Source of the DNA: a virus
Lineage: Duplodnaviria > Caudoviricetes
IMG/VR virus record: IMGVR_UViG_3300027974_000045
Location: 1 to 54,558 of that record
Direction: 5' to 3' (one strand)
Length of the DNA stretch: 54,558 nucleotides
Within the stretch, counting starts at the first letter, position 1. Every line of letters begins with the position of its first letter. A model generated the notes under the pieces. It was given only the letters and a program-made list of their open reading frames with translations, did no database searches and was not told where the DNA came from. Both the position numbers and the translations under genes were made by a program. Below, piece by piece: positions 1-54,558 of the stretch.

Positions 1-24
1 GTCAGGGGCGGGGGGGCGGGGGCA
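1..24. repeat. 24-bp direct terminal repeat (circular assembly overlap)
   Basis: gtcaggggcgggggggcgggggca at 1-24 is identical to 54535-54558; the primase reading frame continues across the join. Confidence 0.95.
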
Positions 25-1088
25 TTTACCGGGTAAATGGGTGTCGGGGTGGGGAGGACCTGCGGCTCACCCTTCGAGGTTCCGAGGGTGATGGGTGATG
101 TGATCTTGCCGTTGTGCGGGCAGGCCGCGCAGATGGCTGGCTGGAAGTCCGACAGCTTGCGGCAGGTGGTGGGATTGAACCGCTTGACCTGCGCCACCTT
201 GGCTGTCGTCTCGGCCTGATTGTACTCAGGGTGCCCGGCCGACCAAGCGTGGCAGACATCCTCGCCCTCCTCAGTGAAGGCGATAACGCCAAGCCCGTGG
301 AACCACGTGGGCTGGTCGACGTTCCCGGCTGTGTCCCGCAACAGGCGGATGACACCGCAGTGCTCGGCGACGACATGGGCCGACGACGGCGGGTAGTCAG
401 GCGTGGAGATCAGGTCCGCGTTTATGTTGGGGACGCCGGCCGACGAGCCCTTCAGGACAGGGACGTCAGTGACGTAGGCCACCAGCGCCTTGTGGAAGTC
501 CTCGCGGGTGGCGACAGGGCCGCCCCGCAGCAGCGTGACAGCGCGTCGGCCGCCGCCCTTGTAGTTGTGAGTGCCCGGCATCCGCAGGACGCTGGCGCTG
601 TCAGAGGTACGCGACGGGTCGGCCGCGAGGCCCCACTGTTTGCAGGCTGCCTTGAGCAGCGACGAGGTCTCGAGCCATACGCCCGGCAGCATGTCTGACC
701 ACATGGGCCAGTAGGCGTGGACGCCATAGCCTGATGACACCAGCCATGGGGCAGGCAGGCCGAGGTCGGCGCAGAAGCGCGTCAGCTCACGGACGGCCTC
801 CTTGCGGTCGGCGTATGCCTCGCGTGGCTTGCTCTCGCGTGTGTCGATGTCCAGCCAGAAGGCCCGCACCGCAGCCACGTTGGCCTGCTTGCGTCCGCCG
901 TTCGCCGAGGCAAACGTGGACAGGGCGTAGTAGGCATCGACGGCCCGGCTGTCGAGGCGGGCGGCTGACCGCTCGAGCCACGCGTTGTCGGGCCCGAACA
1001 CATTTGTAAACCGGCCCGCCGCCAGCGCTCCAGCGCAGCGGATGCCCGCCGTGGGTAGCACGGCGTCGAGGAAATCTTGAACTTGCAT
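1..1088 (-). CDS. N-terminal part of primase-helicase (RepB-like AEP primase plus PriCT-2-like region); continues across the origin
   Basis: Manual translation from ATG 1088: MQVQDFLDAVLP...RAFWLDID...LVSSGYGVHAYWP...CAACPHNGKITSPITLG. RBS GGGAGAG upstream. In frame with ORF 52740..54509; about 960 aa in total. Absent from the ORF track because it runs off the edge. Confidence 0.85.
   Translation of the reverse strand, partial: MQVQDFLDAVLPTAGIRCAGALAAGRFTNVFGPDNAWLERSAARLDSRAVDAYYALSTFASANGGRKQANVAAVRAFWLDIDTRESKPREAYADRKEAVRELTRFCADLGLPAPWLVSSGYGVHAYWPMWSDMLPGVWLETSSLLKAACKQWGLAADPSRTSDSASVLRMPGTHNYKGGGRRAVTLLRGGPVATREDFHKALVAYVTDVPVLKGSSAGVPNINADLISTPDYPPSSAHVVAEHCGVIRLLRDTAGNVDQPTWFHGLGVIAFTEEGEDVCHAWSAGHPEYNQAETTAKVAQVKRFNPTTCRKLSDFQPAICAACPHNGKITSPITLGTSKGEPQVLPTPTPIYPVNAPAPPPL
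24..38. promoter_or_regulatory. 15-bp palindrome, copy inside the primase CDS
   Basis: atttaccgggtaaat, encoding IYPVN in the Pro-rich linker. Confidence 0.7.
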
Positions 1089-36553: not shown

Positions 36554-36562
36554 CCTGCGCAT

Positions 36563-38389: not shown

Positions 38390-38580
38390 AAAAGCCCGGC
38401 ATCCCGCCGACCCCGCTGGTGATGGGCGAGATGGCCCAATTCCTCGACGCTCTCAAGACGCACCTCGAGATGCTGGGCGGCGTGCGCGGCGGCGTGATCG
38501 AGCCACTGGCGACCGACGCGACGCTTGCTGACGTGATCGCCAAGGTCAACCAGCTCGTCGACAGGGTCAACGCCCGGTGA
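38386..38580 (+). CDS. Small virion-region protein
   Basis: Coupled at both ends; ATLADVIAKVN. Confidence 0.65.
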   Translation: MKKPGIPPTPLVMGEMAQFLDALKTHLEMLGGVRGGVIEPLATDATLADVIAKVNQLVDRVNAR

Positions 38581-39023
38581 CGCTGGAGGTCTCGTCCGAC
38601 GAGCCGGCCGCGTGGGATTTCATCACCAGCTTCTACTCGCTCTACCGCGCCGACAGGCAGAAGGGCATCGTCCTGCGCAAGGACGGCGAGGTCATCGCGG
38701 CCACCCTGTACGTCGAGAACAACGGCTCGAACATGTTCATGCACTGCGCCGCCAAGCCCGGCAGGCGCTGGCTGAACAGGGATTTCCTGTACTGGGTGTT
38801 CCACTACCCGTTCGAGCAGTGCGGGGTGCGGCGCGTAACGTGCTGGGTTGAAGCATCAAATGTAGACTGCCACCGATTTATCAAGCATATAGGGTTCACC
38901 CACGAGGCTACGCTGGCGCAAGCCGCAGCCGACGGCGGCGATGTTTTCATCTATGTGATGCACAAGGAACATTGTCAGCATGTATCGCAGGTACGTTTGT
39001 GGCGGCGGCAAAGGCACGGATAA
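38577..39023 (+). CDS. GNAT-like protein (T7 gp13-like position)
   Basis: FHYPFEQCGVRRVT...N...HIGFTHEA. Confidence 0.75.
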   Translation: MTLEVSSDEPAAWDFITSFYSLYRADRQKGIVLRKDGEVIAATLYVENNGSNMFMHCAAKPGRRWLNRDFLYWVFHYPFEQCGVRRVTCWVEASNVDCHRFIKHIGFTHEATLAQAAADGGDVFIYVMHKEHCQHVSQVRLWRRQRHG

Positions 39024-40020
39024 CCCGTACGACCCCCAGATCGGCGCAGCCGCTGCCAAGAGCGCGGAGACGGCCGACAGGGCTATCGCCTTCGCCGAAA
39101 AATACCAGATGGAGGTCGTGGCTCCGCTGCTGAGGCAGAGCGCTGAGGCGTCTGCCAAGACGCAAGGCCAGCTCGGCGAGCTTTACGCCACGAACAAGGC
39201 GGGCATGGACCTCTCCATGGAGCGCTACAAGGAGTTCGGTATCCCCGCCGAGCAGCGCTATTACGACATGGTGTCGAAGTACTCCGAGCCCGCCGAGATG
39301 GAGCGTCAGGCCATGGCCGCCAAGGGCGACCTCGGCGTGGCGCAGGCCAACCAGTTTGAGGCGCTGCGTCGTCGGCAAGCGGCTGTCGGCATCGACCCCA
39401 CATCCCCGGCAGCCATTAGCGCGATGACCGACGCGTCGGTCATGGGTGCAGCGCAGGAAGCGTCGGCCATGAACCGGGCCCGTGGCGCAGCGCGCCAGCT
39501 GGGCATGCAGCTCACCGCCGACGGCGCAAACTTCGGGCGCGGCGGCCAGTCAGGTGTTCTCCAGTTCGGCGCAGGCGCGCAGGGCAACGCGATGGGTGGC
39601 GCAGGCGTCGCGAACAGCGCGCTCGGCGCAGCGGCTGGCGCGAGCAGCGGCATGATGCAGGGCTTCAACACAGGTCTGCAGGGCTACGGCCAGAACCTCA
39701 ACGCCTACACCAGCCTCGGCAACACCGCCATGAACGCGCAGGCGCAGCAGCAGGCGGCGCTCTACAGCGGCCTCGGCTCCATGGCGGGCTCGGCGGCAGG
39801 CGTCTATGCCGCTGGCGGCTTCTCGGACGTCCACTTGAAGGAAAACATCGAGCTGATCGGCCACACCCCCGAGGGGCTCGGCATTTATCGGTTCACCTAC
39901 GTCGGCGACCCGACCGTCTACGAGGGTGTCATGGCTCAGGAGGTCATGACCGTCCGGCCGGAAGCGGTCGGCTTTACCAACGACGGCTACATGTACGTCG
40001 ACTACGCACAGCTGGGGTAA
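38980..40020 (+). CDS. Ejection protein with C-terminal peptidase-S74-like domain
   Basis: Gly/Ala/Gln-rich body, then FSDVHLKENI...IYRFTY...GVMAQEV...VDY. Confidence 0.7.
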   Translation: MYRRYVCGGGKGTDNPYDPQIGAAAAKSAETADRAIAFAEKYQMEVVAPLLRQSAEASAKTQGQLGELYATNKAGMDLSMERYKEFGIPAEQRYYDMVSKYSEPAEMERQAMAAKGDLGVAQANQFEALRRRQAAVGIDPTSPAAISAMTDASVMGAAQEASAMNRARGAARQLGMQLTADGANFGRGGQSGVLQFGAGAQGNAMGGAGVANSALGAAAGASSGMMQGFNTGLQGYGQNLNAYTSLGNTAMNAQAQQQAALYSGLGSMAGSAAGVYAAGGFSDVHLKENIELIGHTPEGLGIYRFTYVGDPTVYEGVMAQEVMTVRPEAVGFTNDGYMYVDYAQLG

Positions 40021-40023
40021 ACC

Positions 40024-42258
40024 ATGGCCGGCCTTCCATCCTTCGGCGACAGCTTCTCGTCCGCCTTCAGTTCGACCTACGGCATGCTCAAGCAGAAGCA
40101 GAGCCAAGAGAAGGCGGATGAGCGCGCGGCAGCCGCCGAGGCGCGTGCGCAGGAGGATGCGGACTACCAGAAGGCCCAGCGCGACCGGCTCGACCGGCAG
40201 CGCGAAGCCGTGAACGCATCTGTCTTCAAGGTCAAGGACCCGGTGCTCGCGCCCGAAAACAACGCCAACCCCGTCAGGGCAGGTATCGACACCGCCCCCA
40301 CCATCACTGCGGACCTACCGTGGAAGACGGGCGAAACCGTGCAGGCTGCGGGGCTCCCGTTCGACCCCAACAACCCCGGCATCAAGCCGCAGCTGGAGGG
40401 GGCCACGTACACTCCAAAGGGTCTGCCCTTCCGTCCGCCTGAGCAGGAGCTGCTGGTGCCGAAGGCCCCGGCGCAACCCCCGCGCCCTGTGGCGGAGAAC
40501 GTCGTCCCGACCATGGTCGACGGCACGATCCGCTACATGCCGAAGGACGCGGTCGAAGAGCTGCAGGGCTCCGCGCGCACCCGCGCCATGGCGTCGGCCA
40601 TGAGTGAGTTCGACACAGCGATGAGCGTCAGCTTGAACGCCACGGCAGACGCTCAGGAAGACCGCGAGGTGGTCAAGAAGTCACGCGAGTTCGGTCAGAA
40701 GGTGGTTGACGCGTGGGGGATTTTCCAGACCGACCCCGTCAAAGGGCTGCAGTCACTTACGAACACGGCTTACAAAAGTCTGCCCGACGGGCAGGAGGCG
40801 TCGTTCGAGTACGACGCCAAGACCGGCAACGCTATGATGACGTTCAAGGCGCGCACCGACAAAGGGCTGATAACTGTCGGCGAGCCTCAAACGCTGCCCG
40901 CCACGGAGTGGTTCAAGCGGGGGATGGCACTGGCGGACCCGGCGGCATTTGCGACGTACCTCACGCAGTCCAGCGAGGATGCGTTTCGCGCGCTCACCCT
41001 GAAATATGCCGGCAACAACGACGCCCGCGCCGCTGCCGCAGAAGCCCGAGCCGCCGCCCTGCACCCCGCGCAGCTCCGCGCAGCTACTGCGGGCGCTACC
41101 GCCGCAGAGCAGGAGACCGACATCAATGGGTTGAAGATCGCCGGAGCTGTCGCAGGTACAGCGCGCGACCCCGCCGTTGGCTCCTACATCGCGGAGGCCG
41201 CTACAAAGGCCATCCCGGGACTGGTCGTGACGAGCGACTTCAGGGACGAGGCCGCAAACAAGAAGGCCGGCGGCGTCAGCGACAGCTACCACAAGTACGG
41301 CGCAGCCCGCGACTTCCGCATCCCGCAGGGTATGACGTCCGCGCAGGTGGCGGCCAAGCTCAAGGGTACGTTCGGCGCAGGCTACGATGTCGTGGACGAG
41401 GGAGACCATGTCCACGTCGAGCCCTCGCCTGCGTGGTCTCCCAAGATTGCAGGGTTCACCGGCACGACGCCGGCTGTTGACCAAAAGACGCGGGACCGCG
41501 TCGACACGTCTGTTAACCAGATCGTTGTGGACGCGGCAAAGCGCAACGAGGACCCTCTGCCGGCTCTGCGGATTTACTATAAAAACTCGTCGGGTCAGGC
41601 GAGGGCGTACCTCGACAGTCAGTTGGTACGGCCGCGTCCCGACGAGGGGGCCGCCGCCTCGACAGGCTCCACAGAAGAAAAACGGCCAGCCGCTGGCGAT
41701 CGGCGTCCTGATCCGAAAGAGAGGGTTGTGGACGGTGTCACGGTTGTCGACACTAGCGCAGGCGGCGCGCTCAGTCGGTCCCTTAACCAAGCCGGCAAGG
41801 GGATGTCGCAGGTAAACGCCGAGATGCAGCGTAAACCTGTCGAGCAGTTCAACGCGCTTGTTGCAAGCGGGAGGGTCACGACGTCGGACATTGCGCGTGT
41901 TCGCAGATACCCGGCCGGAGAAATCTTTCTGTCCCCCGCAGCGCGCAAGGTTCTCGGCCTCCCCGCGGCAACGCCGGTGGCCGCCCCCAAGGCACAGCCG
42001 CCCGTGCGTGTCGGTCTCCCAGACGTGGGAAAGATGATGCGCGACGCTGGCGAAAAAGCGGGGAAAGCGGAGGCCGACAAGCGCGTACGCGAAGCCCGGC
42101 CCCAAGTCGACGCGCTCAACAAGGCGGTGGCCAACGGCACAGCCACCCGCGAGCAGGCACTGGACGTGGCGCAGCGCTTCAGCCGCTACCCGGCGGTCAA
42201 GAGCATCGTGTCGCCTGCGGCGCTGCGTTATATCTCCTCTGTGTGGGATAAGAAGTAA
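40024..42258 (+). CDS. Ejection protein with internal peptidase M15A-like domain
   Basis: VTSDFR...N..AGGVSDSYHKYGAARD...DHVHVE. Confidence 0.75.
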   Translation: MAGLPSFGDSFSSAFSSTYGMLKQKQSQEKADERAAAAEARAQEDADYQKAQRDRLDRQREAVNASVFKVKDPVLAPENNANPVRAGIDTAPTITADLPWKTGETVQAAGLPFDPNNPGIKPQLEGATYTPKGLPFRPPEQELLVPKAPAQPPRPVAENVVPTMVDGTIRYMPKDAVEELQGSARTRAMASAMSEFDTAMSVSLNATADAQEDREVVKKSREFGQKVVDAWGIFQTDPVKGLQSLTNTAYKSLPDGQEASFEYDAKTGNAMMTFKARTDKGLITVGEPQTLPATEWFKRGMALADPAAFATYLTQSSEDAFRALTLKYAGNNDARAAAAEARAAALHPAQLRAATAGATAAEQETDINGLKIAGAVAGTARDPAVGSYIAEAATKAIPGLVVTSDFRDEAANKKAGGVSDSYHKYGAARDFRIPQGMTSAQVAAKLKGTFGAGYDVVDEGDHVHVEPSPAWSPKIAGFTGTTPAVDQKTRDRVDTSVNQIVVDAAKRNEDPLPALRIYYKNSSGQARAYLDSQLVRPRPDEGAAASTGSTEEKRPAAGDRRPDPKERVVDGVTVVDTSAGGALSRSLNQAGKGMSQVNAEMQRKPVEQFNALVASGRVTTSDIARVRRYPAGEIFLSPAARKVLGLPAATPVAAPKAQPPVRVGLPDVGKMMRDAGEKAGKAEADKRVREARPQVDALNKAVANGTATREQALDVAQRFSRYPAVKSIVSPAALRYISSVWDKK

Positions 42259-45200
42259 TGCCCGGAGAACTCGTCCCGCTACCCGGCGGCGGTTTCGGCG
42301 TCACGCGTGGCGACGAGACGCCTGACGACGTACTTCGCGCCTACGGCTACACGCCCGCCCCGCCCGTCGGAGGCAAGCGCAAGCCCTTCGCGGCAGGCTT
42401 CGACGCAGCGGCCACAGGGCTGACGGCCGGCCTACCATACGCCGTGCGCCAAGTCACCGGCGGCACCACGGCGCGTGAGGAGTACGACTACAAGCAGAAG
42501 CTCCGCGAGAGCGCCGCCCGCCAGCAGGAACTCCTGCCCGGCGGCCCGGCGTGGTTCGACAACGCTCCGCTCGGTCAAGTCATCTACGAGAACCTCGCCT
42601 ACCCGGCCCCCCAGATGGTCGCGCAGGTTGCTGGCGGTCTGGTCGGCGGTGCGGTGGGCTCCCTCGCGGGCCCCGGCCCCGGCACGGCCATCGGCGCGGG
42701 TCTTGGCGCTGGTGCTGTCGGCTCGCCCTTCTACGTGGGGTCCAACGTCGCGCGTGCGACCGAGGACGGCCAGAAGAACCTGACGGCTCAGGCGGCTGGC
42801 CGCTCCATCGGCATCGCCGGCGTCCAGTCGCTTCTCGACGTTCCGGTGGCCGCGTTTGCTCCGGGTGTCGGCAAGCTCATCCCCGGCGCAGGCGGGTTTG
42901 CTGGCAACGTCTTGACCCGCGCCGCCAAGGGTGCGGCCCTCGCCGCTCCGCTGGAGGCCGGCACTGAAGTCCTGCAGCAGGCCGGCGAGCGCTACGCCGC
43001 CGGGCTCGACCTCGTGTCGCCGGATGCGGGTAACGAGTATTTCCGAGCGGGGACACTCGGCGGCCTGCTCGGCGGCATTACTGGCGGCGTCGGCGGCCCG
43101 TTCAACGTCAAGCGTACGCCTGCGGCGGTCCCGACACCCACGGCCAACGCCATGCAGGCCGGCGCACCTGTCGACATCTTGCAGATCGGCGGCCCGACCT
43201 ACGACGCCCGGGGCCTCGAGGATTACGGCATCGCGCAACAGCGCGCGAACTACATGGCCGCCGCCCCCGTCGGCGCGCAGTCCGACCTGTTCCAGTTCCC
43301 GCTCGTCGAGCCCGAGCCTGTCGTTCAGCAGGAGGACATGGCGGCAGCGCCGCCGCGCGACAACCGCACCGAGGACCTGTTCGAGTACGCTCCCACGGCT
43401 GAGGTGCGGTCGCAGTTCTCCCCGAACAGCGTCGTGGCCGCGGTGCGGGAAGCCGTTGCCCCGAGGGACGAGGCCGGTAACCGGATCAAGAACAAGAAAG
43501 GCGAACTGGTCGAAGGCAAACTGGATAACTGGTCCCTGCAGTTGGTCAACAAGGTCAACAACCTGATCTTCACCGGCAACGACGAAGAGCTGGCCGCCTA
43601 CGTCGACGCCGCGCAGGAGACACTCCAGACCGCCAAGTTGTCGGGGAAGACGATCGCCTACCGCGAGGCGGCCCTCGGCGCAGCGGCCGGCATCGCCAAG
43701 GCCCACGGCGACCTGATGGGCACGGCTCGTGGTATCGAGGGACTGCGCACGCCGCCTGTCGCCAAGGAAGCGCCGGCCATCGCTGAGCCCCCGGCACCCA
43801 TCCCGACGCCGGACGCCCTGCAGCCCGAGGCGCAGTTTGCTCAGGCGGCGCAGACCGTGGCGGATACTGAGCGTAGGGACGCTCAGCTTTCGGAGGACGC
43901 CAAGAGGCAGGACCTTCTCGATTACGTGCTCAATGCACCGGACACCGTCGATCCCGTTCGCCGGTTCGTCGCGCTGCTGAAGCGAAACGGCCTCGAGCCG
44001 ACGCTCCGTGGTTACGAGACCAAGAAAATCGACAGTGCCGTGACGTTCGCAGCGATGCCGGAGCCTGAGCCGGAGTTTGCTGACTTCGACCCCGGCCCGC
44101 AGGAAGATGGCGTCGGCTCGCTGGAAGCCATGATCCCCGAGCGTGGGACCGTGCGCAGCCAGCCTCAGCCCCGGCCTGCCCCGCTGCCCAAGCCCGAGGC
44201 CCCGCCTCTGGTCATGCGTACCTACAGTGACGAGGACATCGCCAACATCGAGGCGGCTGCCGTGCGTCGTGCGGCCAAGGCTGCGAAGCTGGCGACCGCT
44301 GCGGCGGATGCCATGCCCACCGGGCCCAAGCAAACGGAGATGTTCACCCCCAAGGGGAAGGTCACCGCGACCGTCGAGAAGGCCATGAAGCGGGCGGCCG
44401 ACGCCGCCGAGGAGCGGCGTGCTGCTGCCAAGGCCCGCCGCGATGCGACCAACGCGAAGACCAAGGCCACCCGGGAAGCCAACAGGGCGGCCCAGCAGGC
44501 GGCGAGAGAAGCCGAGCAGCGGGCTGCCGAGGAAGCTGCAGCCAAGGCGGCAGCCCAGCCCAAACCCAAACCCAAACCCGCCCCGGCAAAAACGGACGCA
44601 CCGACGCAGCCGCGTGCAAAACTGACGTTGCCTCCCAAGGCCGCAGCGGCGGCCGACACGTCGAAGGCGAAAGAGAAGCCCGAGGCTACGGCGACGGCGG
44701 AGCCTGCCGAGAAGGTCGCCGAGTTCAAGACCGCCAAGGGTTCGACCTACAAGGTCAACGCTGACGGCACGACCACGCGCGACAAGGCTGCACGGCCGGA
44801 GCATCCCGGCAAGGCGGAGCGCGGCCCCCAACCTACGTCCGAGGACACTTTCTACGCCACGAAAGAGCAGGCCGACGCGCTGGCGATCATGCAGGCGAAG
44901 GGCGGCCCGCGCACCCGGGTGATCCGCGATCGCAACAGCTACGCGGTCGAATACGTCGAGGGCCCTGACGCCGGCAAACTCGTGAAGGGCTCAGTCATCA
45001 CGCCCTCGCGCACGCCTGCTGTGGGACTGCTGCCCGTTGAACTGTGGGACGGCGGCAAGCGCATCCACTTCGGCAACGAGATCGTCTCGACGTCGGCAGC
45101 CGAACCGAAAGCCCCGCCCGCCGCAGAGGCGGCCAAGAAAACGTCGCAAGCCCGGTCGGCCCCGGCCGCTGAGACCCAGACCACGACTGCCGAGAAGCCC

Positions 45201-48200
45201 GCTGCACCGCCCGAGTTCAAGGCCCCTGCGGGCGGCATCACCCAAGAGGATGCTGTGGCGTGGGCGACGGCTCGCGCCAACAGTTTGGGCATCCGCGACA
45301 ACGACCCTATCCGCGCAGCACTGGCGGACGGTGCCCGCACGCAGGTCCAGTACAAGCAGGGCCTGCTCACCCCCGGCGCGTTCAACGCCAAGGTTCCCCC
45401 TGACGGCCCGAGAAAGACCGCGTGGCTGATGGGCGCGCAGTGGGCCATGACCCAGCGGGCCGCCGCGCCTGAGGTCAACGCCACTCCCGAACCCAAGGGC
45501 GACCCCGTCGAGAAGATGGTGGAGCGGAAGGCCGCGAAAGCTGCGGCCACGCTCGAGCCCGCCCCCGAGCCCACACCTGCCCCCGAGCAGCGGGCCAGCA
45601 AAGAGACCATGGCCGCCGTCAAGAAGGCGTGGCAGGCGATCGACAGGAAGGTCGACAAAATCCGCGACGACCTCTCCGAGTACATCGACACCGGGAATTA
45701 CAAGACCAACAAGCAAATTGTGGCCTACGCCGCCAAGCTGAACAAGGCCGGCGTCATCGACGATGGCACACTGGCCGAGATCGAGCGCACCATGTCCGAC
45801 AAGGACATGGGCTGGGGCAACGTCGACACTGATTTCAACTTCGCCATCGACGAGTACGAGAGCCGGCTCAAGGAAGAGGCGAAGGCTGAGCTTGGAGGAG
45901 GCACCGCCCGACAGGAAGCCGTCACCCGCCGCGGACTGGTGGGCGGCCTCATGGGCGCGGCCGCCACGCTGGCGGCCGGTGCCGCGAAGGCTAAGACTGC
46001 GCTGGCCGGCACCTCGTTTGCCGACGCCATCGGCCCGAAAGGCTGGGTGGCGGACGCGTTCGAGCGGGGCCAGTGGCTTTACGACGCTGACCTTTCCAAG
46101 GCAGTCGCGTGGGTGCGCGACAACAGCACCAACCCCGCTCACCGCGACCTCGCCCGGCTGCTGATGTTGGGCGGTTTCGGTAAAGGCGCGACGCTGTCCA
46201 TCGCTCCCCCCGGCGCGGTGTTCGGTCTGGCAGGTCTCACAGAGTTTAAGGGCGACCACATTGCCGTTAAACTGATGATGAAAAACGGCGACCAGACCGC
46301 GTGGAACAACGGTCTATCCGAAGAAACCCTGCTGCACGAAGCCATCCACGCGTGGGTGATGGCTCGGTATGAGGGTGTCGGCACGTACCTCTCCCGCAAT
46401 CTGGAAATCCTGAAGATCGCTCCGGTCGAAGGCGAGCCGTTTGTCGCGGCTTTCCGCGAGCTGTGGCGGACTGTGAGCGGTCGGCTGGAAAAAGAGTTCG
46501 ACTTCGAAAACAAAAGTGCGGATGATCCCATTTTTGACGACCCGCGCATGTTGAATCTCCGCGAGGCATGGGGCTCGCCGGACGAGCTGCTGGTGCGCGT
46601 GTTCGTTGACCCCTACACACGGGAGTGGCTCAAGACCCACGACATGGACGGTCGGGTGGTCAAGCCCGCCGACGCCAAGCCGTCGCTGTGGGACAAGATC
46701 GTCAAGTTCTTCGGCGACATGCTGGGCATCAAGGCCGCGCCGACCCGTGCAGCGTTCGACGAGCTGATGGACGCCGGCACACGCCTGCTGAAGGCCGGCA
46801 CGCTGGACCCGGCAGACCTGAAGGTCGCCAGTGCGATGAACGCCGAGCTGGCTAAGGAGACTACGCGGGCTGAGACCACGGCGGCTGACCCCGAGCCTCG
46901 TGGCGGCCTGTACGGCGACTTTCTTGCGGCGTCGTACCCTGACGTCCTCGATGATCTGGACGGCGAGGGGTACGTCAGGCGTATCGACGCGGAGCCCGCG
47001 ATCGAGTGGATCGCCTCGCACCCCGAGAAAAATCTGGAGCACCTGTCGACGCTGGCGCAGGTCATGCTTGACGCAGGTCTCGGCAAAGGCATCGACGTTT
47101 CAGTCTACTCTGAAGACTGGCTGGACAAGAACCCTGACGCGGAACCCGGCTTGGAGAACGCCCACGGGTATGTGCGGCAGGGGGTGTCCCCAGACAGCCG
47201 CCACGAGGTGGTTCTGGCACAGGCCAGAGGCACGTACATGGGCGACCTCCTCCGCGACGGGTTGTCTCCCGTCGCGTTTATGCACGAGGCTTTCCACGCG
47301 TGGGTCGGGGGGAGGATCGGTACGCTGCGGCGCTATACGTCCGATCAGGTCACTCCGGTTACAGTGCTGCGCAACGCGCCTGCAGAGATCAAGCAACTGC
47401 ACAAGCTGTTCCGCGAGTTTGTCAATATGCCGGCGACAGACCATATAGATAACCTGCTCGATCAAGCCTCTAACCTCCACAGCGGCGTGATCCAGATGTT
47501 TAGTTACGCCAAGACAAACATGGACGAGTTTGCCGCTGTTATACTGACCGAGCCCTATGTGCGGTGGGTGCTCAAAAACACTGCCATGGATGGCCTGCCG
47601 GTCAACGCAGACAGGAAGTCCGCGTGGGACCGCATCATGGACTGGATGGCGAGCCTGTTCCAACTGCCTCCTCGTAAAACCCGGCAGGTCAGGTCAGCGC
47701 TGGACGAACTCTCCGAAGCGTTTGACAAAACGCTCGCCGCTGTAGGTCGGCTGCCGTCGGACAACAGCGTCGCCGAGGGCGATTACGCCTACATCGAGAG
47801 CAGGAAGGCCAGACGCTTTGCTGCAAGCGGCCCCGACCGTATCGCTAAACTTGAGCCCGAGGGCGGAGCCAGACCCCGCCAAAACATCGACCAGCGCCAG
47901 ACCGACCGGCCCGAGACCGACGTGGCGCGGGAGATCGACGACTACCTCAGGGCCAGCGACGCCGCCAAGGCCGACAAGTTCTCGCCCGAGGACTACGCCA
48001 AATTCCGCGCCCGCCTTGATGCGCTCGGGCTGGCGTCGGTGCAGCTGATGGTCCGCAAGCCTGTCATGGGTGAGAAGTTCACCGGCTACTTCGGGCCCAA
48101 CACGAAGGGCCAGCGCCTGATCACCCTGTTGCTCGGCAACGATGGTAAACTCAGGACGCTGAACCACGAGGTCATCCACGCCCTGCGTGACATGGGCGCG

Positions 48201-51200
48201 TTCTCTGACAGCGAGTGGGCGTCCCTCACCCTTATCGCCAAGTCCGCGGGCACACGGCTCGAGGACGCCAAGGCACGCTACGGCGGCAATATTGCCTACC
48301 AGAACAAAGATGGTAGCGTGAACGAGGACGCCATCGTCGAGGAAGTGGTGGCGGATATGTTCGGGGACTGGGCGCAAAAGCGCGCTACCTTCCCGGGCCG
48401 CGCCTCGGCGCTGTTCGATCGCATCGGGCGGTTCTTCCACCTGCTGCACGACACCCTGCGCACGGGGCGCGGCTGGCCCCAACAGTCCCTCACCCAGATT
48501 TTCAACGACATCGACAGCGGCAAGATCGGCGCGCGAGGTAACCCAAGCTCCCAGATGCGTGAGGGCCCCGGCCGCATGAGCCTTGGCCCGACAGCCCAGA
48601 GCGCAGGCAACGTCCTGAAGAACGTCATCGCCGACAGGGGCCAGCGCTACCCGGCCATGGCGGTCATGAGCCCGAAGCTGATCGAGATGGGGGACAAGCT
48701 GGGGCTGACGGCCCTGCGCACCTACCAGCGCCTGCTTGACCTGAGCGCCGCCGTGGTCTCCCGCCACAACACCCAGTTCGAACAGCTGTCCACCGACGCC
48801 GACGCCCTGCCCGTGGCAGCCCGGGCCAGCGCCAACAAGCTGATCGAGACCATGACCCGCAAGGGCTTGTGGGCGTTCAACCCCGGCTATCTGGCCAGCC
48901 CACCGCAGGTGGACGCCGCACTGGCCGCACAGTTCAACGCCATGCCGGTCAAGGCGCAGGAGGCCATCAAGTCCGCCTTCAGCCTGATGCGCCAGACGCT
49001 GCTGGAAAAGAAGGCCGCCGTCATGGAAGCAGTGGGCAGCGAGTACGACGCCCTGATCCGTGGCGCGACTAGCACTGGCGACACCGCCGAGGCTGCCCGG
49101 TTGACCCGGGCCAAGGCCAAGGAGCTGACCCGCTTCCGCTCCCTGCTGTCGATCAACGAGGGCATGCCCTACGCGCCTCTCCGCAGGTTCGGGGACTACG
49201 TGGTCGTCGGCACCTCGCAAGCCTACCTCGACGCTGTCGAGGCCGCGCGCAGCGGCACGGGCACGTGGGACACCGTGACCAGCATGCAGAAGGACGACCG
49301 GCACTACTTCGTCGACTTTGCCGAGAACGCTGCTGCGCAGGCATCCATGCTGGCGCGTGTGACGGCCGCCTACGACGTGCCTTACGCCTTCAAGAAAGAC
49401 GACCGCGTGGACCGCGGTGTTGGCCAACCCATGTTCAGCATTTTCCAGCGCCTGCAGAAAATGATCGAGGACGAGGAACTGGACCCGGTCGCCACGCGCC
49501 GCCTCCAGAAGATGGCCACCGAGATGTACCTCGGCGCACTGGCCGCCACCTCTGCTCGCAAGTCCGAGCTGCATCGCCGGCTGGTGGCCAGCGAGGACCT
49601 CGACATGATGCGGGGTATCATCCAGCAGGGGCGGGCGGACGCCCACTTCATCGGTGCGGTCAAGAACAACAGCCAAGTGCTGGACGCACTGGCCGAGGCC
49701 AAGCAGCAGGCAGAGGTGCGTGGGGCCACGGCTGACGAGCGGGCACAGAACGCCACCATGCGCGGCCCCCGTCAGGCGGTGCTCAACGAGGTGCTGCTGC
49801 GCCACGCAGCCAACCTCGACCAGCCCCCGCCCAACACGCTGGTGGACGCTGCCACGAGCCTGACGTCCATGTGGATGCTCAGCACCAGCCCGAGCTACTT
49901 CCTGCAGCAGGCGCTGCAGCCGATGGTCTTCTCGGTGCCGGCCGCCGCTGCCCGCTACGGCTACGGCCCTGCCATGTCGACCCTGATGAAGGGCTACAAG
50001 CAAATCGTCGGCGCATGGGGTGGCTCCGGTGTCACCGGCCCGCTGGACATCGACCAGCTCGACGAGCAGTACCGCCCCCTCGCCCACTTCCTCGCCGAGC
50101 GTAACCGCCTCGACGTCGGGATCGACAAGGACATGGGCAGCTGGACCTCGGGTGGCGACAACCCGGCCGCTGTCGTGTGGCGCACCATCGACGGCAAGCT
50201 GCGCGGGATCACCCGCAAGGCCGAGATGGTCAACCGCCTGTCCACGGCGGTCATGGTCTACGATCTGGAGCTGGCGGCCACGGCCAAGGCTCCGGTCAAC
50301 TTCGACCCCGGGGCCTACACCGCCTATCGCGACGACTTCGCCACGGCCCACCCCGACCTGACGCCGATGACGCCCGAGCAGTTCGCGGCGGCCAACCAAG
50401 CGCTGAAGCTGATCGACGACACCCACGGCGACTACAGCACGGCGTCGGCTCCCCGTTTCCTGCGCGGCAACTTCGCCCGGCTGATCACCCAGTTCCGCAA
50501 GTTCCAGATCATGACGGTCACCCTCTACGCCCAGTCGATCAAGGACGCGTTCTTCGCGCCCAACATCGACCCGGTGGAGCGGGCCGTCGCACGTCGCACC
50601 ATCGCCTACCTGCTGGGTCACGCTGCCCTGTTCGCCGGCGCTGTCGGCCTGCCGGGAGCCATGATGGCCATGGCGGTGCTGGAGGCGGTGCTCGACACGG
50701 TGGATGACGACGAGCCCCACGACGTCGAGGAGATGTTGCGCAAGGCCATCGGCAACGACGCCATCGCCGACCTCCTGCTCAAGGGTGCGCCGACACTGGC
50801 GGGGCTGGACCTGTCCGGCTCGCTGGGCCAAGGCGCGTCCCTGTCGCTGGCCCCCTACTCCGACCCGCCCCTCGATCGTCAGGGCTACGAGAAGTACGTG
50901 TTCGCCCTGACGGGCCCGGCCATCGGCGGCGTGGGGGCGAACCTGTTCAAGGGCATCGGCCTCATGCGTGAGGGCGAATACTACAAGGGCCTCGAGGCCA
51001 TGATGCCCAAGGGTATCGCCAACGGCATGCGGTCCTACCGCGAGGGCACCGAGGGGATCACCAACGTGCGCGGCGACGTGCTCGATCAGGTGGACGCCTA
51101 CACCACGGCGGCCGGGGTCCTCGGCCTGCGCACCTCGCGCCGGGCTGACCAGCAGGAAGCCGTCGGCCGCAAGATCGAACTCGACACGTTCTTCAAGCGC

Positions 51201-51476
51201 AAGGGTGTGCGGGTCAAGCGGGCCTACGTGGAGGCGGTGCGCAAGAACGACACCGTCGCCCAGACCCGGCTGCGGGCCCAGTGGATGGCGCTGCAGGAGG
51301 CACGGGCCGAGAAGGGCTACGCCAAGCAGCCGCTGTCCATGCTGCTGCGCGCTCCGGCGGCCCAGACCAAGAAGGAAGCCCGCACGGTGGAGGGCATCCA
51401 GTTCTCGCCGGGCAACGCCGACGCGGCCGAGGAACTGGCCGACATCTACGGCCTCAGCTCAGAGGACGACACCTAA
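42258..51476 (+). CDS. Giant internal virion / polyvalent protein (3072 aa)
   Basis: Gly-rich hydrophobic N-terminus, low-complexity linkers, three HExxH modules, C-terminal helical/hydrophobic region. Confidence 0.85.
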   Translation: MPGELVPLPGGGFGVTRGDETPDDVLRAYGYTPAPPVGGKRKPFAAGFDAAATGLTAGLPYAVRQVTGGTTAREEYDYKQKLRESAARQQELLPGGPAWFDNAPLGQVIYENLAYPAPQMVAQVAGGLVGGAVGSLAGPGPGTAIGAGLGAGAVGSPFYVGSNVARATEDGQKNLTAQAAGRSIGIAGVQSLLDVPVAAFAPGVGKLIPGAGGFAGNVLTRAAKGAALAAPLEAGTEVLQQAGERYAAGLDLVSPDAGNEYFRAGTLGGLLGGITGGVGGPFNVKRTPAAVPTPTANAMQAGAPVDILQIGGPTYDARGLEDYGIAQQRANYMAAAPVGAQSDLFQFPLVEPEPVVQQEDMAAAPPRDNRTEDLFEYAPTAEVRSQFSPNSVVAAVREAVAPRDEAGNRIKNKKGELVEGKLDNWSLQLVNKVNNLIFTGNDEELAAYVDAAQETLQTAKLSGKTIAYREAALGAAAGIAKAHGDLMGTARGIEGLRTPPVAKEAPAIAEPPAPIPTPDALQPEAQFAQAAQTVADTERRDAQLSEDAKRQDLLDYVLNAPDTVDPVRRFVALLKRNGLEPTLRGYETKKIDSAVTFAAMPEPEPEFADFDPGPQEDGVGSLEAMIPERGTVRSQPQPRPAPLPKPEAPPLVMRTYSDEDIANIEAAAVRRAAKAAKLATAAADAMPTGPKQTEMFTPKGKVTATVEKAMKRAADAAEERRAAAKARRDATNAKTKATREANRAAQQAAREAEQRAAEEAAAKAAAQPKPKPKPAPAKTDAPTQPRAKLTLPPKAAAAADTSKAKEKPEATATAEPAEKVAEFKTAKGSTYKVNADGTTTRDKAARPEHPGKAERGPQPTSEDTFYATKEQADALAIMQAKGGPRTRVIRDRNSYAVEYVEGPDAGKLVKGSVITPSRTPAVGLLPVELWDGGKRIHFGNEIVSTSAAEPKAPPAAEAAKKTSQARSAPAAETQTTTAEKPAAPPEFKAPAGGITQEDAVAWATARANSLGIRDNDPIRAALADGARTQVQYKQGLLTPGAFNAKVPPDGPRKTAWLMGAQWAMTQRAAAPEVNATPEPKGDPVEKMVERKAAKAAATLEPAPEPTPAPEQRASKETMAAVKKAWQAIDRKVDKIRDDLSEYIDTGNYKTNKQIVAYAAKLNKAGVIDDGTLAEIERTMSDKDMGWGNVDTDFNFAIDEYESRLKEEAKAELGGGTARQEAVTRRGLVGGLMGAAATLAAGAAKAKTALAGTSFADAIGPKGWVADAFERGQWLYDADLSKAVAWVRDNSTNPAHRDLARLLMLGGFGKGATLSIAPPGAVFGLAGLTEFKGDHIAVKLMMKNGDQTAWNNGLSEETLLHEAIHAWVMARYEGVGTYLSRNLEILKIAPVEGEPFVAAFRELWRTVSGRLEKEFDFENKSADDPIFDDPRMLNLREAWGSPDELLVRVFVDPYTREWLKTHDMDGRVVKPADAKPSLWDKIVKFFGDMLGIKAAPTRAAFDELMDAGTRLLKAGTLDPADLKVASAMNAELAKETTRAETTAADPEPRGGLYGDFLAASYPDVLDDLDGEGYVRRIDAEPAIEWIASHPEKNLEHLSTLAQVMLDAGLGKGIDVSVYSEDWLDKNPDAEPGLENAHGYVRQGVSPDSRHEVVLAQARGTYMGDLLRDGLSPVAFMHEAFHAWVGGRIGTLRRYTSDQVTPVTVLRNAPAEIKQLHKLFREFVNMPATDHIDNLLDQASNLHSGVIQMFSYAKTNMDEFAAVILTEPYVRWVLKNTAMDGLPVNADRKSAWDRIMDWMASLFQLPPRKTRQVRSALDELSEAFDKTLAAVGRLPSDNSVAEGDYAYIESRKARRFAASGPDRIAKLEPEGGARPRQNIDQRQTDRPETDVAREIDDYLRASDAAKADKFSPEDYAKFRARLDALGLASVQLMVRKPVMGEKFTGYFGPNTKGQRLITLLLGNDGKLRTLNHEVIHALRDMGAFSDSEWASLTLIAKSAGTRLEDAKARYGGNIAYQNKDGSVNEDAIVEEVVADMFGDWAQKRATFPGRASALFDRIGRFFHLLHDTLRTGRGWPQQSLTQIFNDIDSGKIGARGNPSSQMREGPGRMSLGPTAQSAGNVLKNVIADRGQRYPAMAVMSPKLIEMGDKLGLTALRTYQRLLDLSAAVVSRHNTQFEQLSTDADALPVAARASANKLIETMTRKGLWAFNPGYLASPPQVDAALAAQFNAMPVKAQEAIKSAFSLMRQTLLEKKAAVMEAVGSEYDALIRGATSTGDTAEAARLTRAKAKELTRFRSLLSINEGMPYAPLRRFGDYVVVGTSQAYLDAVEAARSGTGTWDTVTSMQKDDRHYFVDFAENAAAQASMLARVTAAYDVPYAFKKDDRVDRGVGQPMFSIFQRLQKMIEDEELDPVATRRLQKMATEMYLGALAATSARKSELHRRLVASEDLDMMRGIIQQGRADAHFIGAVKNNSQVLDALAEAKQQAEVRGATADERAQNATMRGPRQAVLNEVLLRHAANLDQPPPNTLVDAATSLTSMWMLSTSPSYFLQQALQPMVFSVPAAAARYGYGPAMSTLMKGYKQIVGAWGGSGVTGPLDIDQLDEQYRPLAHFLAERNRLDVGIDKDMGSWTSGGDNPAAVVWRTIDGKLRGITRKAEMVNRLSTAVMVYDLELAATAKAPVNFDPGAYTAYRDDFATAHPDLTPMTPEQFAAANQALKLIDDTHGDYSTASAPRFLRGNFARLITQFRKFQIMTVTLYAQSIKDAFFAPNIDPVERAVARRTIAYLLGHAALFAGAVGLPGAMMAMAVLEAVLDTVDDDEPHDVEEMLRKAIGNDAIADLLLKGAPTLAGLDLSGSLGQGASLSLAPYSDPPLDRQGYEKYVFALTGPAIGGVGANLFKGIGLMREGEYYKGLEAMMPKGIANGMRSYREGTEGITNVRGDVLDQVDAYTTAAGVLGLRTSRRADQQEAVGRKIELDTFFKRKGVRVKRAYVEAVRKNDTVAQTRLRAQWMALQEARAEKGYAKQPLSMLLRAPAAQTKKEARTVEGIQFSPGNADAAEELADIYGLSSEDDT

Positions 51477-51499
51477 CAACGAAAGCGGAGAGCAGTGCC

Positions 51500-52624
51500 A
51501 TGAGCCGGATGGGTGGTCCCCCGATTAAACGTGAGTTGGCTGAGCAGACCATAGCGGTTTGCGAGGAAGTGCTGGCGGAGGGTACGAAGGACTACCAGTC
51601 CGAGGTGGCGCGGCGGATGGGCCTGTCCATCCCGGCTGTCCGCAACCGGCTCCGGTCTGCCGAAGCCAACTACGGCATGAAGGTGGACCCGGACGCGTAC
51701 CAGCCCAGACGCGCCGCCTCTGCCTTTACGGTGGACCCCCTGCCGGATGACGGCGAGCCGGACGCCGAGACACTGATCGCAGAGCTGACCGCCCGTCACG
51801 CAAAGCGGGCGGTCCACGACACCGCGACAAAGATGCACACCATCAAGATCAACGTCGACGGCCCCATCGCCGTTGCCTTTCTCGGCGACCCCCACATCGA
51901 CGACCCCGGCTGCGCGTGGGGTGACCTGTCCCGGGACGTGGCGATCTGCCGGGACACGCAGGGCTTTATGGCTGTAAACATTGGGGATACAACCAACAAT
52001 TGGGTCGGCCGCCTGATGGGTCTGTACGCCAACCAAGAGGTCACGTCCAAGCAGGCGCTCAAGCTGATCGAGTGGCTGCTGTCAGAGCTGCCGTGGCTGA
52101 TGACCGTGGGTGGTAACCATGACACGTGGAACACGCAAAAGGGCGATGTCTCCGAGGTGATCCACCGACTGCAAAAGATGCCGGGGCTGTACGAGAACGT
52201 CGGGGCCCGCATGAGGGTGGTGCTGCCCGGCGACGTCGAGTTCACGATGAACTGCAGGCACGATTTCCCGGGCGGCTCGCAGTTCAATCCGGCGCATGCG
52301 CTGGTGCGTGAGACCCTGTTCGGGTTCCGCGACCACATCCTCGCCTGCGGCCACAGGCACCACTCGGGCTACATCCCTGTGTGGCACAACGACCCGCGCC
52401 GCCTGTGCCATGGTTTCAGGGTCGGGACCTACAAAGATTTCGACCACTACGCCCGCGAGAAGGGTTTCAAGGAGGCGAACTGGGCCCGGTCCATGGCCGC
52501 TGTCATAGACCCGGCATATGCCGACGACCCGGTACGGTTCATTAAGCCCTTCTTTAACCTCGAAGAGGCGTCCGAGTACCTGACGTGGAAGCGTGGCCGG
52601 TTCGACGTGAGCCGCAGCACCTGA
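51500..52624 (+). CDS. Calcineurin-like metallophosphoesterase with N-terminal HTH
   Basis: QSEVARRMGLSIPAVRNRL; GDPH, GD, GNHD, H, GHRH; start MSRMGG with GGAG RBS. Confidence 0.85.
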   Translation: MSRMGGPPIKRELAEQTIAVCEEVLAEGTKDYQSEVARRMGLSIPAVRNRLRSAEANYGMKVDPDAYQPRRAASAFTVDPLPDDGEPDAETLIAELTARHAKRAVHDTATKMHTIKINVDGPIAVAFLGDPHIDDPGCAWGDLSRDVAICRDTQGFMAVNIGDTTNNWVGRLMGLYANQEVTSKQALKLIEWLLSELPWLMTVGGNHDTWNTQKGDVSEVIHRLQKMPGLYENVGARMRVVLPGDVEFTMNCRHDFPGGSQFNPAHALVRETLFGFRDHILACGHRHHSGYIPVWHNDPRRLCHGFRVGTYKDFDHYAREKGFKEANWARSMAAVIDPAYADDPVRFIKPFFNLEEASEYLTWKRGRFDVSRST

Positions 52625-52625
52625 A

Positions 52626-52700
52626 CGAAAAACCCCGCCCTGCATGTCCATCTGCAAGGCGGGGTCAGTCGCGGGACGTTGGAGTGGGAGAGCGCCAACG
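52626..52700 (-). ncRNA. Candidate small RNA with anti-Shine-Dalgarno loop
   Basis: Promoter TTGCGC-N17-TATCGT (52734-52706), 5' hairpin CGUUGG-CGCUCUCCCACU-CCAACG, then the terminator. Confidence 0.5.
52628..52665 (-). terminator. Rho-independent terminator at the convergence of the two arms
   Basis: accccgccttgca...tgcagggcggggttttt on the minus strand. Confidence 0.8.
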
Positions 52701-52739
52701 CCCGAACGATATGCGCGCTTTATGTAAAGCGCAAGACGG

Positions 52740-54558
52740 TCAGACCACCTTTGACGTGAGCACGCTCACGATTTTCGGGGCGGTGGGGCTGATGCCCACG
52801 GCGTCCCGCACGGCGGACGGGTTGATCTCCCAGACCTTCACGGGCCCGGCCAAGCTGCTGTATTGGTTCGTGCCGCGGCCCAGCGACATGCGCTTGACCT
52901 CCGGCGCTGCGAAGCTGTGACGCACCAGCTCGTCGTGGATGACCTTCATGGACACCCCCTTGCGGCTGCACCACTCCCTGACAGCCGCCACGCTGATGAA
53001 CAGTTTCTCCGAGCTGTAGCGGTCGGGCAGGATGGAGCGGCCGGTGATGACGCCCCCCTTGGGGTGGCAGGCCACCGTTGCGGCCGCGCCGTGGGTCAGG
53101 TTGCCCTCGCCCTCGGTGACCAGCACCCCGGCCCAGATGTCGGTGAGCATGTCGGCGAACTGCTCGACAGGCTTGCTGACCGACGAGATCATCTGGCCGC
53201 GGTTCTTCTCCAGCTCGAGCAGTATCCAGTCGAACATGGCGTTGACGTCGAACGACACCAGCCCGAGCTTGCGGCAGATGACCAGCGACGTGAGGGTGCA
53301 GGCATGGAGCATCGACCAGTAGCGCTCGGCCTGCATGATCTTGGCGCGCTGGTTGAACACCCGCCGCATCTCGAACAGCATGGCCTGCACCTTGTCCTTG
53401 TTGTCGACGAGGTACTGCGCGTAGACCCGGCCGGCGTGGCCGTAGTTGTCGCTGAAGCTGGCGAACAGGGGGTCGGCTACGTTGGGCGGGATGGTGCTTT
53501 TCTTTGTGAGGGTGAACTCCCACAGGCGGGCCAGTTCCGCCTCGGCGTTGGCGCGGTGGAGTGACAGCTTGTCGCTGAGCAGGTTGTTGCCCGACGCCGC
53601 CACGATCGTCGACCAGTGCAGGCTCTCGCGCTCGCCGCCCTCGGCCCGCATCCGCAGCTTGCCCTGTCCGGCCGAGGCCGCATAGACCAGCTGCGATGCG
53701 AACTCGGGCTTGCAGTTCGTCATCTCGTCGATGACGCCCGGCAGGTTGTGCATGATGCCGAGGTGCTGCCACAGGGCGTTCTCGGTGTAGCTGCTCTCAC
53801 GCAGCAGCAGCTCGCTGGCCTTGCCCCATGCCGACAGGCCGACCATCTGGGCGGTGGTCTTGCCGTAGCCGGAGCCGGAGCTGTGGGCGAAGACCGTGAC
53901 CCCGCCGTTCTGGCCCCAGAGCCGCCACAGGGGGGCGGCGAACGCCACCAGCACGCAGAACTGCAGGCCCTCCTCGCCCGGCCTGTTGTAGGCCCGGTCG
54001 ACGTTGGTGACCCACGTCTGCAGGTCACCGCCCGTGACGAGGTGGCGGGCCTTGGGGGTGGCGTCCGAGTGAACCACGGCGGCGCGCATGCCACCCTTGG
54101 CCACGTAGTCCTTGCCGATGACGAAGTCGTCGCCATGCCAGCCGAACTGGCGGATGGCCGGGGTCTTGGTGTAGCCGTCCTGCAGGGCGCTGATCCACTC
54201 CAGCAGGTAGCGGTCCACCTCGGGGCGGGCGGCCGGGCCCACCGCGATCTCTTGGGATGCCAGTGCTGCGCTCAACGGCTTGCCTCCTTCGGCGACCAGA
54301 CTGTGAGGGATGACGAAGTCCTTCTCGTCACCGTTGGGGTATATAGCATGGATGTTCATCTCGAACTTGCTGTCGGTGCTCTCGATCCGAACCGTCGGGT
54401 AGAACAGGATGTTGGAGAAACCCTGCCGGGCCCACGTGACCTGCCCGGTGTCGGGGTCTTCCTCGCGCACCGAGCGCCAGAGCATCTTGTCTGCGTGGCC
54501 CGGCACCACGCCGAAGCCATAGCCGTCAGGGAATGTCAGGGGCGGGGGGGCGGGGGCA
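52740..54558 (-). CDS. C-terminal part of primase-helicase (DUF927-like P-loop helicase domain)
   Basis: Walker A SSGSGYGKTT, Walker B VIDEMT, upstream QFGW motif; open frame through 54558 into the N-terminal half. Confidence 0.85.
   Translation of the reverse strand, partial: APAPPPLTFPDGYGFGVVPGHADKMLWRSVREEDPDTGQVTWARQGFSNILFYPTVRIESTDSKFEMNIHAIYPNGDEKDFVIPHSLVAEGGKPLSAALASQEIAVGPAARPEVDRYLLEWISALQDGYTKTPAIRQFGWHGDDFVIGKDYVAKGGMRAAVVHSDATPKARHLVTGGDLQTWVTNVDRAYNRPGEEGLQFCVLVAFAAPLWRLWGQNGGVTVFAHSSGSGYGKTTAQMVGLSAWGKASELLLRESSYTENALWQHLGIMHNLPGVIDEMTNCKPEFASQLVYAASAGQGKLRMRAEGGERESLHWSTIVAASGNNLLSDKLSLHRANAEAELARLWEFTLTKKSTIPPNVADPLFASFSDNYGHAGRVYAQYLVDNKDKVQAMLFEMRRVFNQRAKIMQAERYWSMLHACTLTSLVICRKLGLVSFDVNAMFDWILLELEKNRGQMISSVSKPVEQFADMLTDIWAGVLVTEGEGNLTHGAAATVACHPKGGVITGRSILPDRYSSEKLFISVAAVREWCSRKGVSMKVIHDELVRHSFAAPEVKRMSLGRGTNQYSSLAGPVKVWEINPSAVRDAVGISPTAPKIVSVLTSKVV
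54535..54558. repeat. 24-bp direct terminal repeat (second copy)
   Basis: Identical to 1-24. Confidence 0.95.

Follow-up and report, generated by a model that had tools for sequence, protein, structure and literature searches.

A hairpin at the end of a phage replication operon carries a loop complementary to the ribosome-binding site of the operon's own primase-helicase gene

Introduction

Does the short gap that closes the replication operon of an uncultured phage simply end a transcript, or could it also act back on the gene that precedes it? The question is raised by the IMG/VR record IMGVR_UViG_3300027974_000045 (Duplodnaviria; Caudoviricetes), a phage known from freshwater metagenomes. 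Its 54,558 nt were analysed at full length and are called the window below. A 115-nt gap in this window lies between the converging units of a primase-helicase gene (minus strand) and an exonuclease gene (plus strand). An initial annotation of the gap had described a promoter, a hairpin and an intrinsic terminator, and had proposed that the hairpin loop pairs with the ribosome-binding site (RBS) of the primase-helicase gene, either as part of a trans-acting small RNA (sRNA) or as a 3′-untranslated region (3′-UTR) that pairs with a 5′-UTR.

Here we show the structures encoded in this gap, the strand to which they are specific, the complementarity of one loop to the primase-helicase RBS and the constraint on the sequence in a near strain. 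The reading that we favour, tentatively and at less than even odds, is that an anti-Shine-Dalgarno (anti-SD) hairpin borne in the 3′-UTR damps translation of the primase-helicase. Of the two forms put forward in the initial annotation, pairing of a 3′-UTR with a 5′-UTR fits the data better and a separate sRNA gene fits them less well.

Three hairpins on the minus strand

The gap encodes three hairpins on the minus strand, namely palindrome A, hairpin B and an intrinsic terminator (Table 1). The 120-nt region folds with a predicted −56.5 kcal/mol (z = −5.3), a stability that none of 200 shuffled sequences reached. Hairpin A overlaps the −35 hexamer and the spacer of the proposed promoter. Hairpin B has a stem of 9 bp (52703–52695 with 52682–52674) that includes one G·U pair at 52701/52676; the stem had earlier been given as 6 bp, which was too short, while the exposure of the loop CGCUCUCCCACU held, the loop being predicted to be unpaired with P ≥ 0.99 except for one weak internal pair. 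The intrinsic terminator is present as described, with 14 pairs over 52666–52631 followed by a U run. Its arms are 92% complementary as DNA, and its U run overlaps with the stop codon of the exonuclease gene on the plus strand. It was the strongest intrinsic terminator in the three stretches scanned and the sole strong one in 34559–54558.

The G·U pair of hairpin B and the U·G pair of the terminator would both be mismatches in a plus-strand RNA, indicating that the folds belong to the minus-strand transcript. This agrees with the minus-strand sense given to the element before. Neither iterons nor an AT-rich stretch were found in the region, and an origin of replication was rejected because both are absent.

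The loop of hairpin B is complementary to the primase-helicase RBS

The perfect 10-nt pairing of the loop with positions 1107–1098, just ahead of the primase ATG, was recovered as proposed. The sequence TGGGAGAGCG occurs exactly twice in the window, at 1098–1107 as the minus-strand RBS and at 52685–52694 as the complement of the loop, and UGGGAGAGCG is the sole purine-rich motif in the 31-nt spacer preceding the primase ATG. The predicted loop–RBS duplex has −20.7 kcal/mol, and all 10 pairs fall within the predicted open loop. On the RBS side, a weak local hairpin is predicted to expose GGGA in its loop, with unpaired probabilities of 0.77–1.0, and in such a model it is conceivable that pairing would begin between the two loops. 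Without constraint, the duplex is predicted at −33.3 kcal/mol. By hand count, opening the stem would allow the 5′ arm of hairpin B (52695–52703) to pair with five of the nine next RBS bases (1089–1097, which reach to the ATG), and the change at 52700 in the near strain described below would add a sixth pair to this extension.

Among 8010 cross-locus control pairs, each consisting of a 160-nt 3′ region and the 28-nt RBS of another phage, 13 contained a perfect complement of at least 10 nt. In addition, 200,000 12-nt loops were simulated and compared with 53 hand-curated RBSs. When the UCUCC core was held fixed, a 10-nt match to the primase RBS arose in 0.29% of the loops and a match to any of the 53 RBSs in 2.7%; for fully random loops the values were 0.0065% and 0.37%, respectively. 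The loop–RBS match is nominally significant by these estimates (about 0.003 to 0.03), though it was found by looking.

The 7-nt seed GGAGAGC, said earlier to recur in two further RBSs, does occupy the RBS position of the genes whose ATGs are at 2737 and 51500 (51487–51493 for the latter). An exact 16-mer from the loop region gave 16 matches in viral contigs, which were rejected as chance, with no other similarity to the window.

Sequence constraint in a near strain

A contig of a near strain, X3 (1803 nt), spans 52645–53600 at about 93% identity with 64 differences. In the non-coding stretch 52676–52739 (64 nt), two changes are among the differences listed. One, at 52722, lies in the loop of hairpin A; the other, at 52700, is a C>U change that leaves hairpin B with U·G in place of C-G when read as minus-strand RNA and would give A·C in a plus-strand RNA. 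The 12-nt loop, both hexamers of the proposed promoter and the linker are unchanged. On the coding side, a change at 52741 turns the stop codon TGA into TAA, all eight coding differences listed for 52746–52815 fall on third codon positions, and the coding part carries at most 61 changes in 858 nt, which corresponds to a silent-site rate of about 21% if these differences, 61 at most, are mostly third-position.

Two changes in 64 nt have P = 3.6e-5 against this third-position rate, and one change was counted by hand among the 32 unpaired positions of the stretch. The element is constrained about as strongly as protein-coding sequence, including at bases that a structural hairpin need not keep. 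These comparisons, which concern one strain and a contig in which positions within about 30 nt of the end are unreported, suggest that the sequence may be constrained as well as the structure. Purifying selection on the element in X3 lends support to the earlier interpretation.

A regulatory 3′-UTR or a plain operon end

If the element is regulatory, the transcript of the replication operon would read through hairpins A and B and end at the intrinsic terminator. The 12-nt C/U-rich loop of hairpin B would mimic an anti-SD sequence and could pair with UGGGAGAGCG ahead of the primase-helicase start codon. Such pairing may begin as a loop–loop contact (UCCC with GGGA) and then extend to 10 bp, whereby ribosomes would be kept off and synthesis of the primase-helicase would be limited. 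It could take place in cis, within one mRNA molecule, or between molecules, by way of stable terminator-bearing 3′ fragments that would outlive the body of the mRNA.

The strongest competitor is a plain structured operon end, in which the hairpins would stop transcription and shield the 3′ end from exonucleases, and the loop–RBS match would be a chance event without function. We regard this as possible, if rather doubtful. A terminator that is the strongest of its region and stands between converging genes is what such an end would have.

Comparison with relatives bears on both readings. Among the candidates scored, 181 proteins fall into the primase-helicase family at E ≤ 0.001. Proteins P0002–P0012 are 50–54% identical, and the nearest relatives compared as DNA have protein identities of 49% (L082), 47% (L083), 46% (L002) and 43% (L126). 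In the relatives, too, the primase gene is the last of its operon; next comes a terminator, a small acidic open reading frame (ORF) with a terminator behind it, or a converging gene. That the terminator is the operon end, and that the primase gene holds the same end-of-operon position in relatives, was counted for the regulatory reading.

Several observations weigh against that reading, and those concerning the relatives, the alternative pairing sites, the chance of a match and the SD consensus also speak for a plain operon end. Hairpins A and B are absent from the relatives, all at 49% protein identity or less, which keep the terminator or the converging gene and not hairpin B. In 90 non-redundant loci, the complement of the 3′ region to its own RBS averages 5.69 nt against 5.66 nt for foreign RBSs, so the anti-RBS feature is not a trait of the family. 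Covariation of loop and RBS in relatives, which the initial annotation had proposed as a check, was not supported; at such a distance, the relatives neither support nor refute a lineage-specific element.

Other points against it come from the window itself. Once G·U pairs are counted, the loop finds four further partners in the genome that are equally good or better, at 11898(−), 18996(−), 28632(−) and the G-run at 1(+). Two of these lie opposite annotated genes, one lies inside a coding region and one has no nearby start codon, and none of the four is a demonstrated RBS. The finding was picked post hoc, and any anti-SD loop has a chance of about 3% of matching some RBS. The SD sequence of this phage is usually AGGAGA, and matches of 5–7 nt to a C/U-rich loop therefore come free; GGAGAGC is not over-represented, with 8 copies in the window against 11 expected. 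The distance between the SD-like motif and the ATG, 13 nt when counted from GGAG, is long for a classical SD. Finally, the constraint in X3 is not significant against the overall coding rate of 7.1% (P = 0.16), and the differences listed for X3 were taken as complete for 52676–52815, as judged from the order of the rows.

A chance match at a plain operon end accounts less well for the fact that the loop matches the RBS of its own gene (0.29% of the simulated loops with a fixed core) and does so wholly inside the loop. Nor does it account for a single change among 32 unpaired loop and linker bases (hand count), as against about 21% at third positions. On balance, we keep the 3′-UTR-borne anti-SD hairpin as the tentative reading.

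In eight of the relatives (L002, L084–L087, L091, L114 and L126), read by eye, a small acidic protein of about 50 aa is encoded directly past the primase-helicase. At this place the window lacks an ORF of this kind, and hairpins A and B are found there.

Read-through transcription or a separate promoter

It is unlikely that the element is an independent sRNA gene of about 75 nt. In that case, transcription would start from TTGCGC-N17-TATCGT and yield a shortened hairpin B plus the terminator, and the RNA would act in trans on the primase RBS, on the genes at 2737 and 51500 or on host mRNAs, with palindrome A as an operator over the promoter. The promoter-like sequence is present as claimed, with TTGCGC at 52734–52729 and TATCGT at 52711–52706 separated by 17 nt. 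Both hexamers and the linker are unchanged in X3, the palindrome covers the −35 and the spacer, which is the usual place for an operator, a terminator with a U tail would suit the 3′ end of an sRNA, and the 7-nt seeds occur in two further RBSs. However, with seven of 12 consensus positions the site is equalled by 336 sites in the window, although only 15 share its TTG/TA...T core, and it is absent from the output of a 9-of-12 promoter scan.

The convincing promoters of this phage are sigma-70-like and all have a perfect TTGACA (TTGACA-N16/17-TAnnnT), and five of them are on the minus strand, at 17559, 16900, 13361, 11105 and 2786; the one at 16900 has CATAAT as its second hexamer. The promoter at 2786–2759 probably drives the last operon, which consists of the gene at 2737, a 337-aa gene, an 86-aa gene and the primase-helicase gene. 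Moreover, a transcript starting about 7 nt past TATCGT would lose four of the nine stem pairs of hairpin B, including the pair that X3 keeps through its C>U change, and the sub-threshold Rfam alignment described below places hairpin A in the RNA. Given that the proposed promoter is weak beside the TTGACA promoters and that a start past TATCGT would remove these pairs, we prefer the read-through form, with the element as a 3′-UTR, over an sRNA with its own promoter.

A further early-strand promoter lies at 9895. The 15-bp palindrome ATTTACCSGGTAAAT is present in 11 copies, nine of them exact, where none is expected in shuffled sequences, and all copies are in the minus-strand early region. One copy stands directly upstream of each of two of the six promoters named here (17559 and 9895), and one is inside the primase gene. 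The set looks like the operators of a phage regulator.

Resemblance to the Rhizobiales-2 RNA

An Rfam search, proposed earlier as a check, found no family at its gathering score anywhere in the window. In a permissive scan of 52560–52800 (241 nt), the best match was Rhizobiales-2 (RF01723; Weinberg et al., 2010, PMC2864571), with 32.7 bits against a threshold of 40 and an E value of 0.019. The alignment covers positions 1–103 of the model with all three stems, and an independent fold yields the same three hairpins. The element shares with this family three hairpins in the same order with a GC-rich terminator last, as well as a C-rich loop in the second hairpin (GCGCCCAUCCACCCC in the family, GCGCUCUCCCACUCC in the element). 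In a hand comparison, 11 of 15 positions of this loop agree and two invariant positions differ. A model built from 31 true members gave the element 25.8 bits (E 0.011) and the next best site in the window 15.4 bits; a search of other loci, about 1.84 Mb in all, yielded no further match at E ≤ 10.

It is nevertheless improbable that the element is a diverged, phage-borne relative of Rhizobiales-2 that acts like this uncharacterised host sRNA. True members, found in 46 of 141 genomes sampled from the family to which a Bradyrhizobium genome belongs and in 2 of 151 sampled from its order, score 45–109 bits, whereas the element stays below the gathering threshold and owes part of its score to a generic GC-rich terminator. 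By eye, about 25 of 26 loci of true members have a promoter made up of an A tract, TTGAAC, about 17 nt and ACCAAT (L182 lacks it), and no promoter of this type is present upstream of 52733. The terminator loops are unrelated, being invariant UUGUCCCC in RF01723 and GAUGGACA in the element. True members are chromosomal, and the element follows a phage primase-helicase gene. A degenerate pattern covering both versions of the second hairpin, that of the element and that of Rhizobiales-2, had no matches in viral contigs. Because scores, promoter, terminator loop and context all differ, the element was not filed under Rhizobiales-2 and the resemblance was kept as a lead.

The true RF01723 RNAs (L180–L211) lie 75–175 nt downstream of a same-strand subtilase (Peptidase_S8) gene. 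Of 16 loci, at least 9 have a same-strand gene of at least 426 aa ahead of the RNA, and all three such genes tested are Peptidase_S8. Within their 3-kb loci, the only local target of the true Rhizobiales-2 loop was the antisense site of the RNA itself.

A related idea, which we consider no less improbable, is that the element copies, in diverged form, or mimics a Rhizobiales-2-type sRNA from a host, with the three hairpins and the C-rich loop kept and the loop retargeted to the RBS of the phage primase-helicase. Were this true, it would give a first target logic for Rhizobiales-2-like RNAs (a C-rich loop against G-rich translation starts), would point to a host in or near the family of Bradyrhizobium, and would mean that a phage adapted a host sRNA scaffold to control its own replication.

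A protein or DNA site as an improbable alternative

Least probable of all is that the conserved bases act through a protein or at the level of the DNA instead of through RNA–RNA pairing. They might form a regulator site at palindrome A, a site for an RNA-binding protein on the loop of hairpin B or a block that keeps late plus-strand transcripts from running antisense into the primase gene. In favour of this, the palindrome of hairpin A is perfect at the DNA level, the phage has another palindrome, ATTTACCSGGTAAAT, whose 11 copies are likely operators, and the whole 64-nt stretch is constrained beyond the loop. Against it, iterons and AT-rich stretches are absent, palindrome A is unique and unlike the repeated operator, and the G·U pairs argue for selection on a minus-strand RNA fold.

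Genome and gene context

The first and last 24 nt of the window are identical (1–24 and 54535–54558), and the genome is therefore a circle of 54,534 bp. This repeat, by which the circle is closed, consists of a G-run (GGGGCGGGGGGGCGGGGG) within the primase-helicase gene; G-runs are places prone to assembly breaks. The window has a G+C content of 65.5%, and no transfer RNA or transfer-messenger RNA genes were found in it. No cultured relative was recovered: tblastn reached at most 26% identity, and the one blastn match in a phage collection is 138 nt long and belongs to a Pseudomonas phage that is unrelated. Scanning viral contigs with a single protein gave no match. The three sequencing runs listed for the stretch consist of DNA contigs, and no RNA run was among them. 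The initial annotation had named anti-SD-loop sRNAs as common in Alphaproteobacteria; an alphaproteobacterial host was not supported.

The early and replication module occupies the minus strand from about 19.6 kb down to position 1 and continues over the junction. It encodes an ATPase, an HNH endonuclease, a family-A DNA polymerase, an exonuclease, a helicase and, last, the DUF927 primase-helicase, whose 960 aa in all are encoded across the window ends and are 100% identical to the protein P0001 (960 aa). The plus strand carries the structural module, which ends in the exonuclease gene and includes two giant ORFs, at 28853–33886 (1677 aa) and 42258–51473 (3072 aa). The C-terminal third of the latter matches a DarB-like antirestriction PHROG and a PHROG of unknown function. 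Minus-strand ORFs at 52082–52657, 51796–52338 and 52447–52698 were rejected as antisense artefacts of a GC-rich genome, since 52082–52657 and 51796–52338 have no PHROG match and the plus-strand ORF is an exonuclease homologue.

Table 1. Coordinates of the intergenic element, its proposed target and neighbouring features in the window
Feature	Position	Strand	Description
Hairpin A	52714..52733	−	UGCGCUUU-ACAU-AAAGCGCG; perfect DNA palindrome GCGCTTTA/TAAAGCGC, unique in the window
Hairpin B	52674..52703	−	Stem GGGCGUUGG/CCAACGUCC; 12-nt loop CGCUCUCCCACU (52694–52683), an anti-SD sequence
Intrinsic terminator of the replication operon	52626..52666	−	14-pair stem with one U·G, 8-nt loop, U run
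Promoter-like site TTGCGC-N17-TATCGT (initial annotation)	52706..52734	−	7/12 consensus positions
SD-like motif UGGGAGAGCG, proposed target of the hairpin B loop	1098..1107	−	9 nt before the primase ATG
Primase-helicase, 5′ part	1..1088	−	ATG 1088–1086; tblastn aligns from residue 1 in relatives
Primase-helicase, 3′ part	52740..54558	−	DUF927, PF06048 (E 2e-27); primase/helicase PHROGs; stop TGA 52742–52740
DNA repair exonuclease family gene, converging	51500..52624	+	374 aa; phrog_7339, E 2e-37
Palindrome ATTTACCSGGTAAAT copies	24–38, 3815, 9903, 12239, 13277, 14730, 16342, 16810, 17195, 17570, 18454		15 bp each

A second phage, represented by 32- and 38.5-kb contigs (runs X1 and X2) from samples that also contain the phage of the window, has an exonuclease gene about 80% identical over 51849–52593, and its sequence is unrelated right past 52593, just short of the intergenic element. 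A 12-nt direct repeat on the plus strand (52601–52612 and 52750–52761; TTCGACGTGAGC and TTTGACGTGAGC, 11 of 12 identical) flanks the intergenic module; chance alone would be expected to supply about one pair of this kind in the searched region.

Comparison with known systems

Reviews and preprints on phage sRNAs exist (PMC12197685; 10.1101/2024.10.31.621285). One close parallel to the favoured reading comes from a bacterial mRNA. According to a report on icaR of Staphylococcus aureus (PMC3868564), an anti-SD motif in the 3′-UTR pairs with the SD of the same mRNA, and an interaction of the 5′- and 3′-UTRs has also been reported for hbs of Bacillus subtilis (PMC5737220). The phage element resembles icaR in having a C/U-rich anti-SD sequence in the 3′-UTR that complements the SD region of its own gene, from which lower translation would be expected: the loop at 52694–52683 lies between the stop codon (52740) and the terminator (52666–52631), and its complement lies at 1107–1098. 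It differs from icaR in that the gene belongs to a phage and is the last cistron of a long operon, with the 5′ and 3′ partners 2.9 kb apart, and in that the motif is in a hairpin loop beside the terminator, where a perfect 10-nt pairing is predicted from sequence alone.

Anti-RBS loops are also a feature of the c4 antisense RNA of phages P1 and P7 (Rfam C4, RF01695) and of the related CI RNA of phage P4. Like c4, the element would be a phage hairpin RNA with a loop complementary to an RBS of the same phage and in one transcription unit with its target. However, c4 lies upstream of its target and is cut from the transcript, whereas the element lies downstream at the operon end; the gene targeted here would be a replication gene and not an antirepressor; and Rfam C4 gave no match at gathering scores, nor at E ≤ 10 in 52560–52800.

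Several 3′-UTR-derived sRNAs of enterobacteria, such as CpxQ, DapZ and SroC, share the terminator of their parent mRNA. As in these sRNAs, the candidate seed comes shortly before the terminator of an operon that encodes proteins, and the RNA could come from processing or from an internal promoter. Such sRNAs are known to act in trans on other mRNAs, whereas the best predicted target here is the RBS of the parent gene itself.

If the pairing is not real, the locus is a calibrated case of how often C/U-rich loops match an RBS by chance, with about 3% when the RBS of any gene counts and 0.3% when only that of their own gene does. If it is real, a hairpin at the 3′ end of the operon would let an uncultured phage control how much is made of the replication initiator encoded in that operon. 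Such an element, as predicted, would be distinguished from both icaR and c4 by its presence in a phage, its place at the end of a replication operon, its loop beside the terminator and the RBS of the parent gene as best target, and it would join the 5′/3′-UTR logic of bacterial icaR to the anti-RBS loops of P1 c4.

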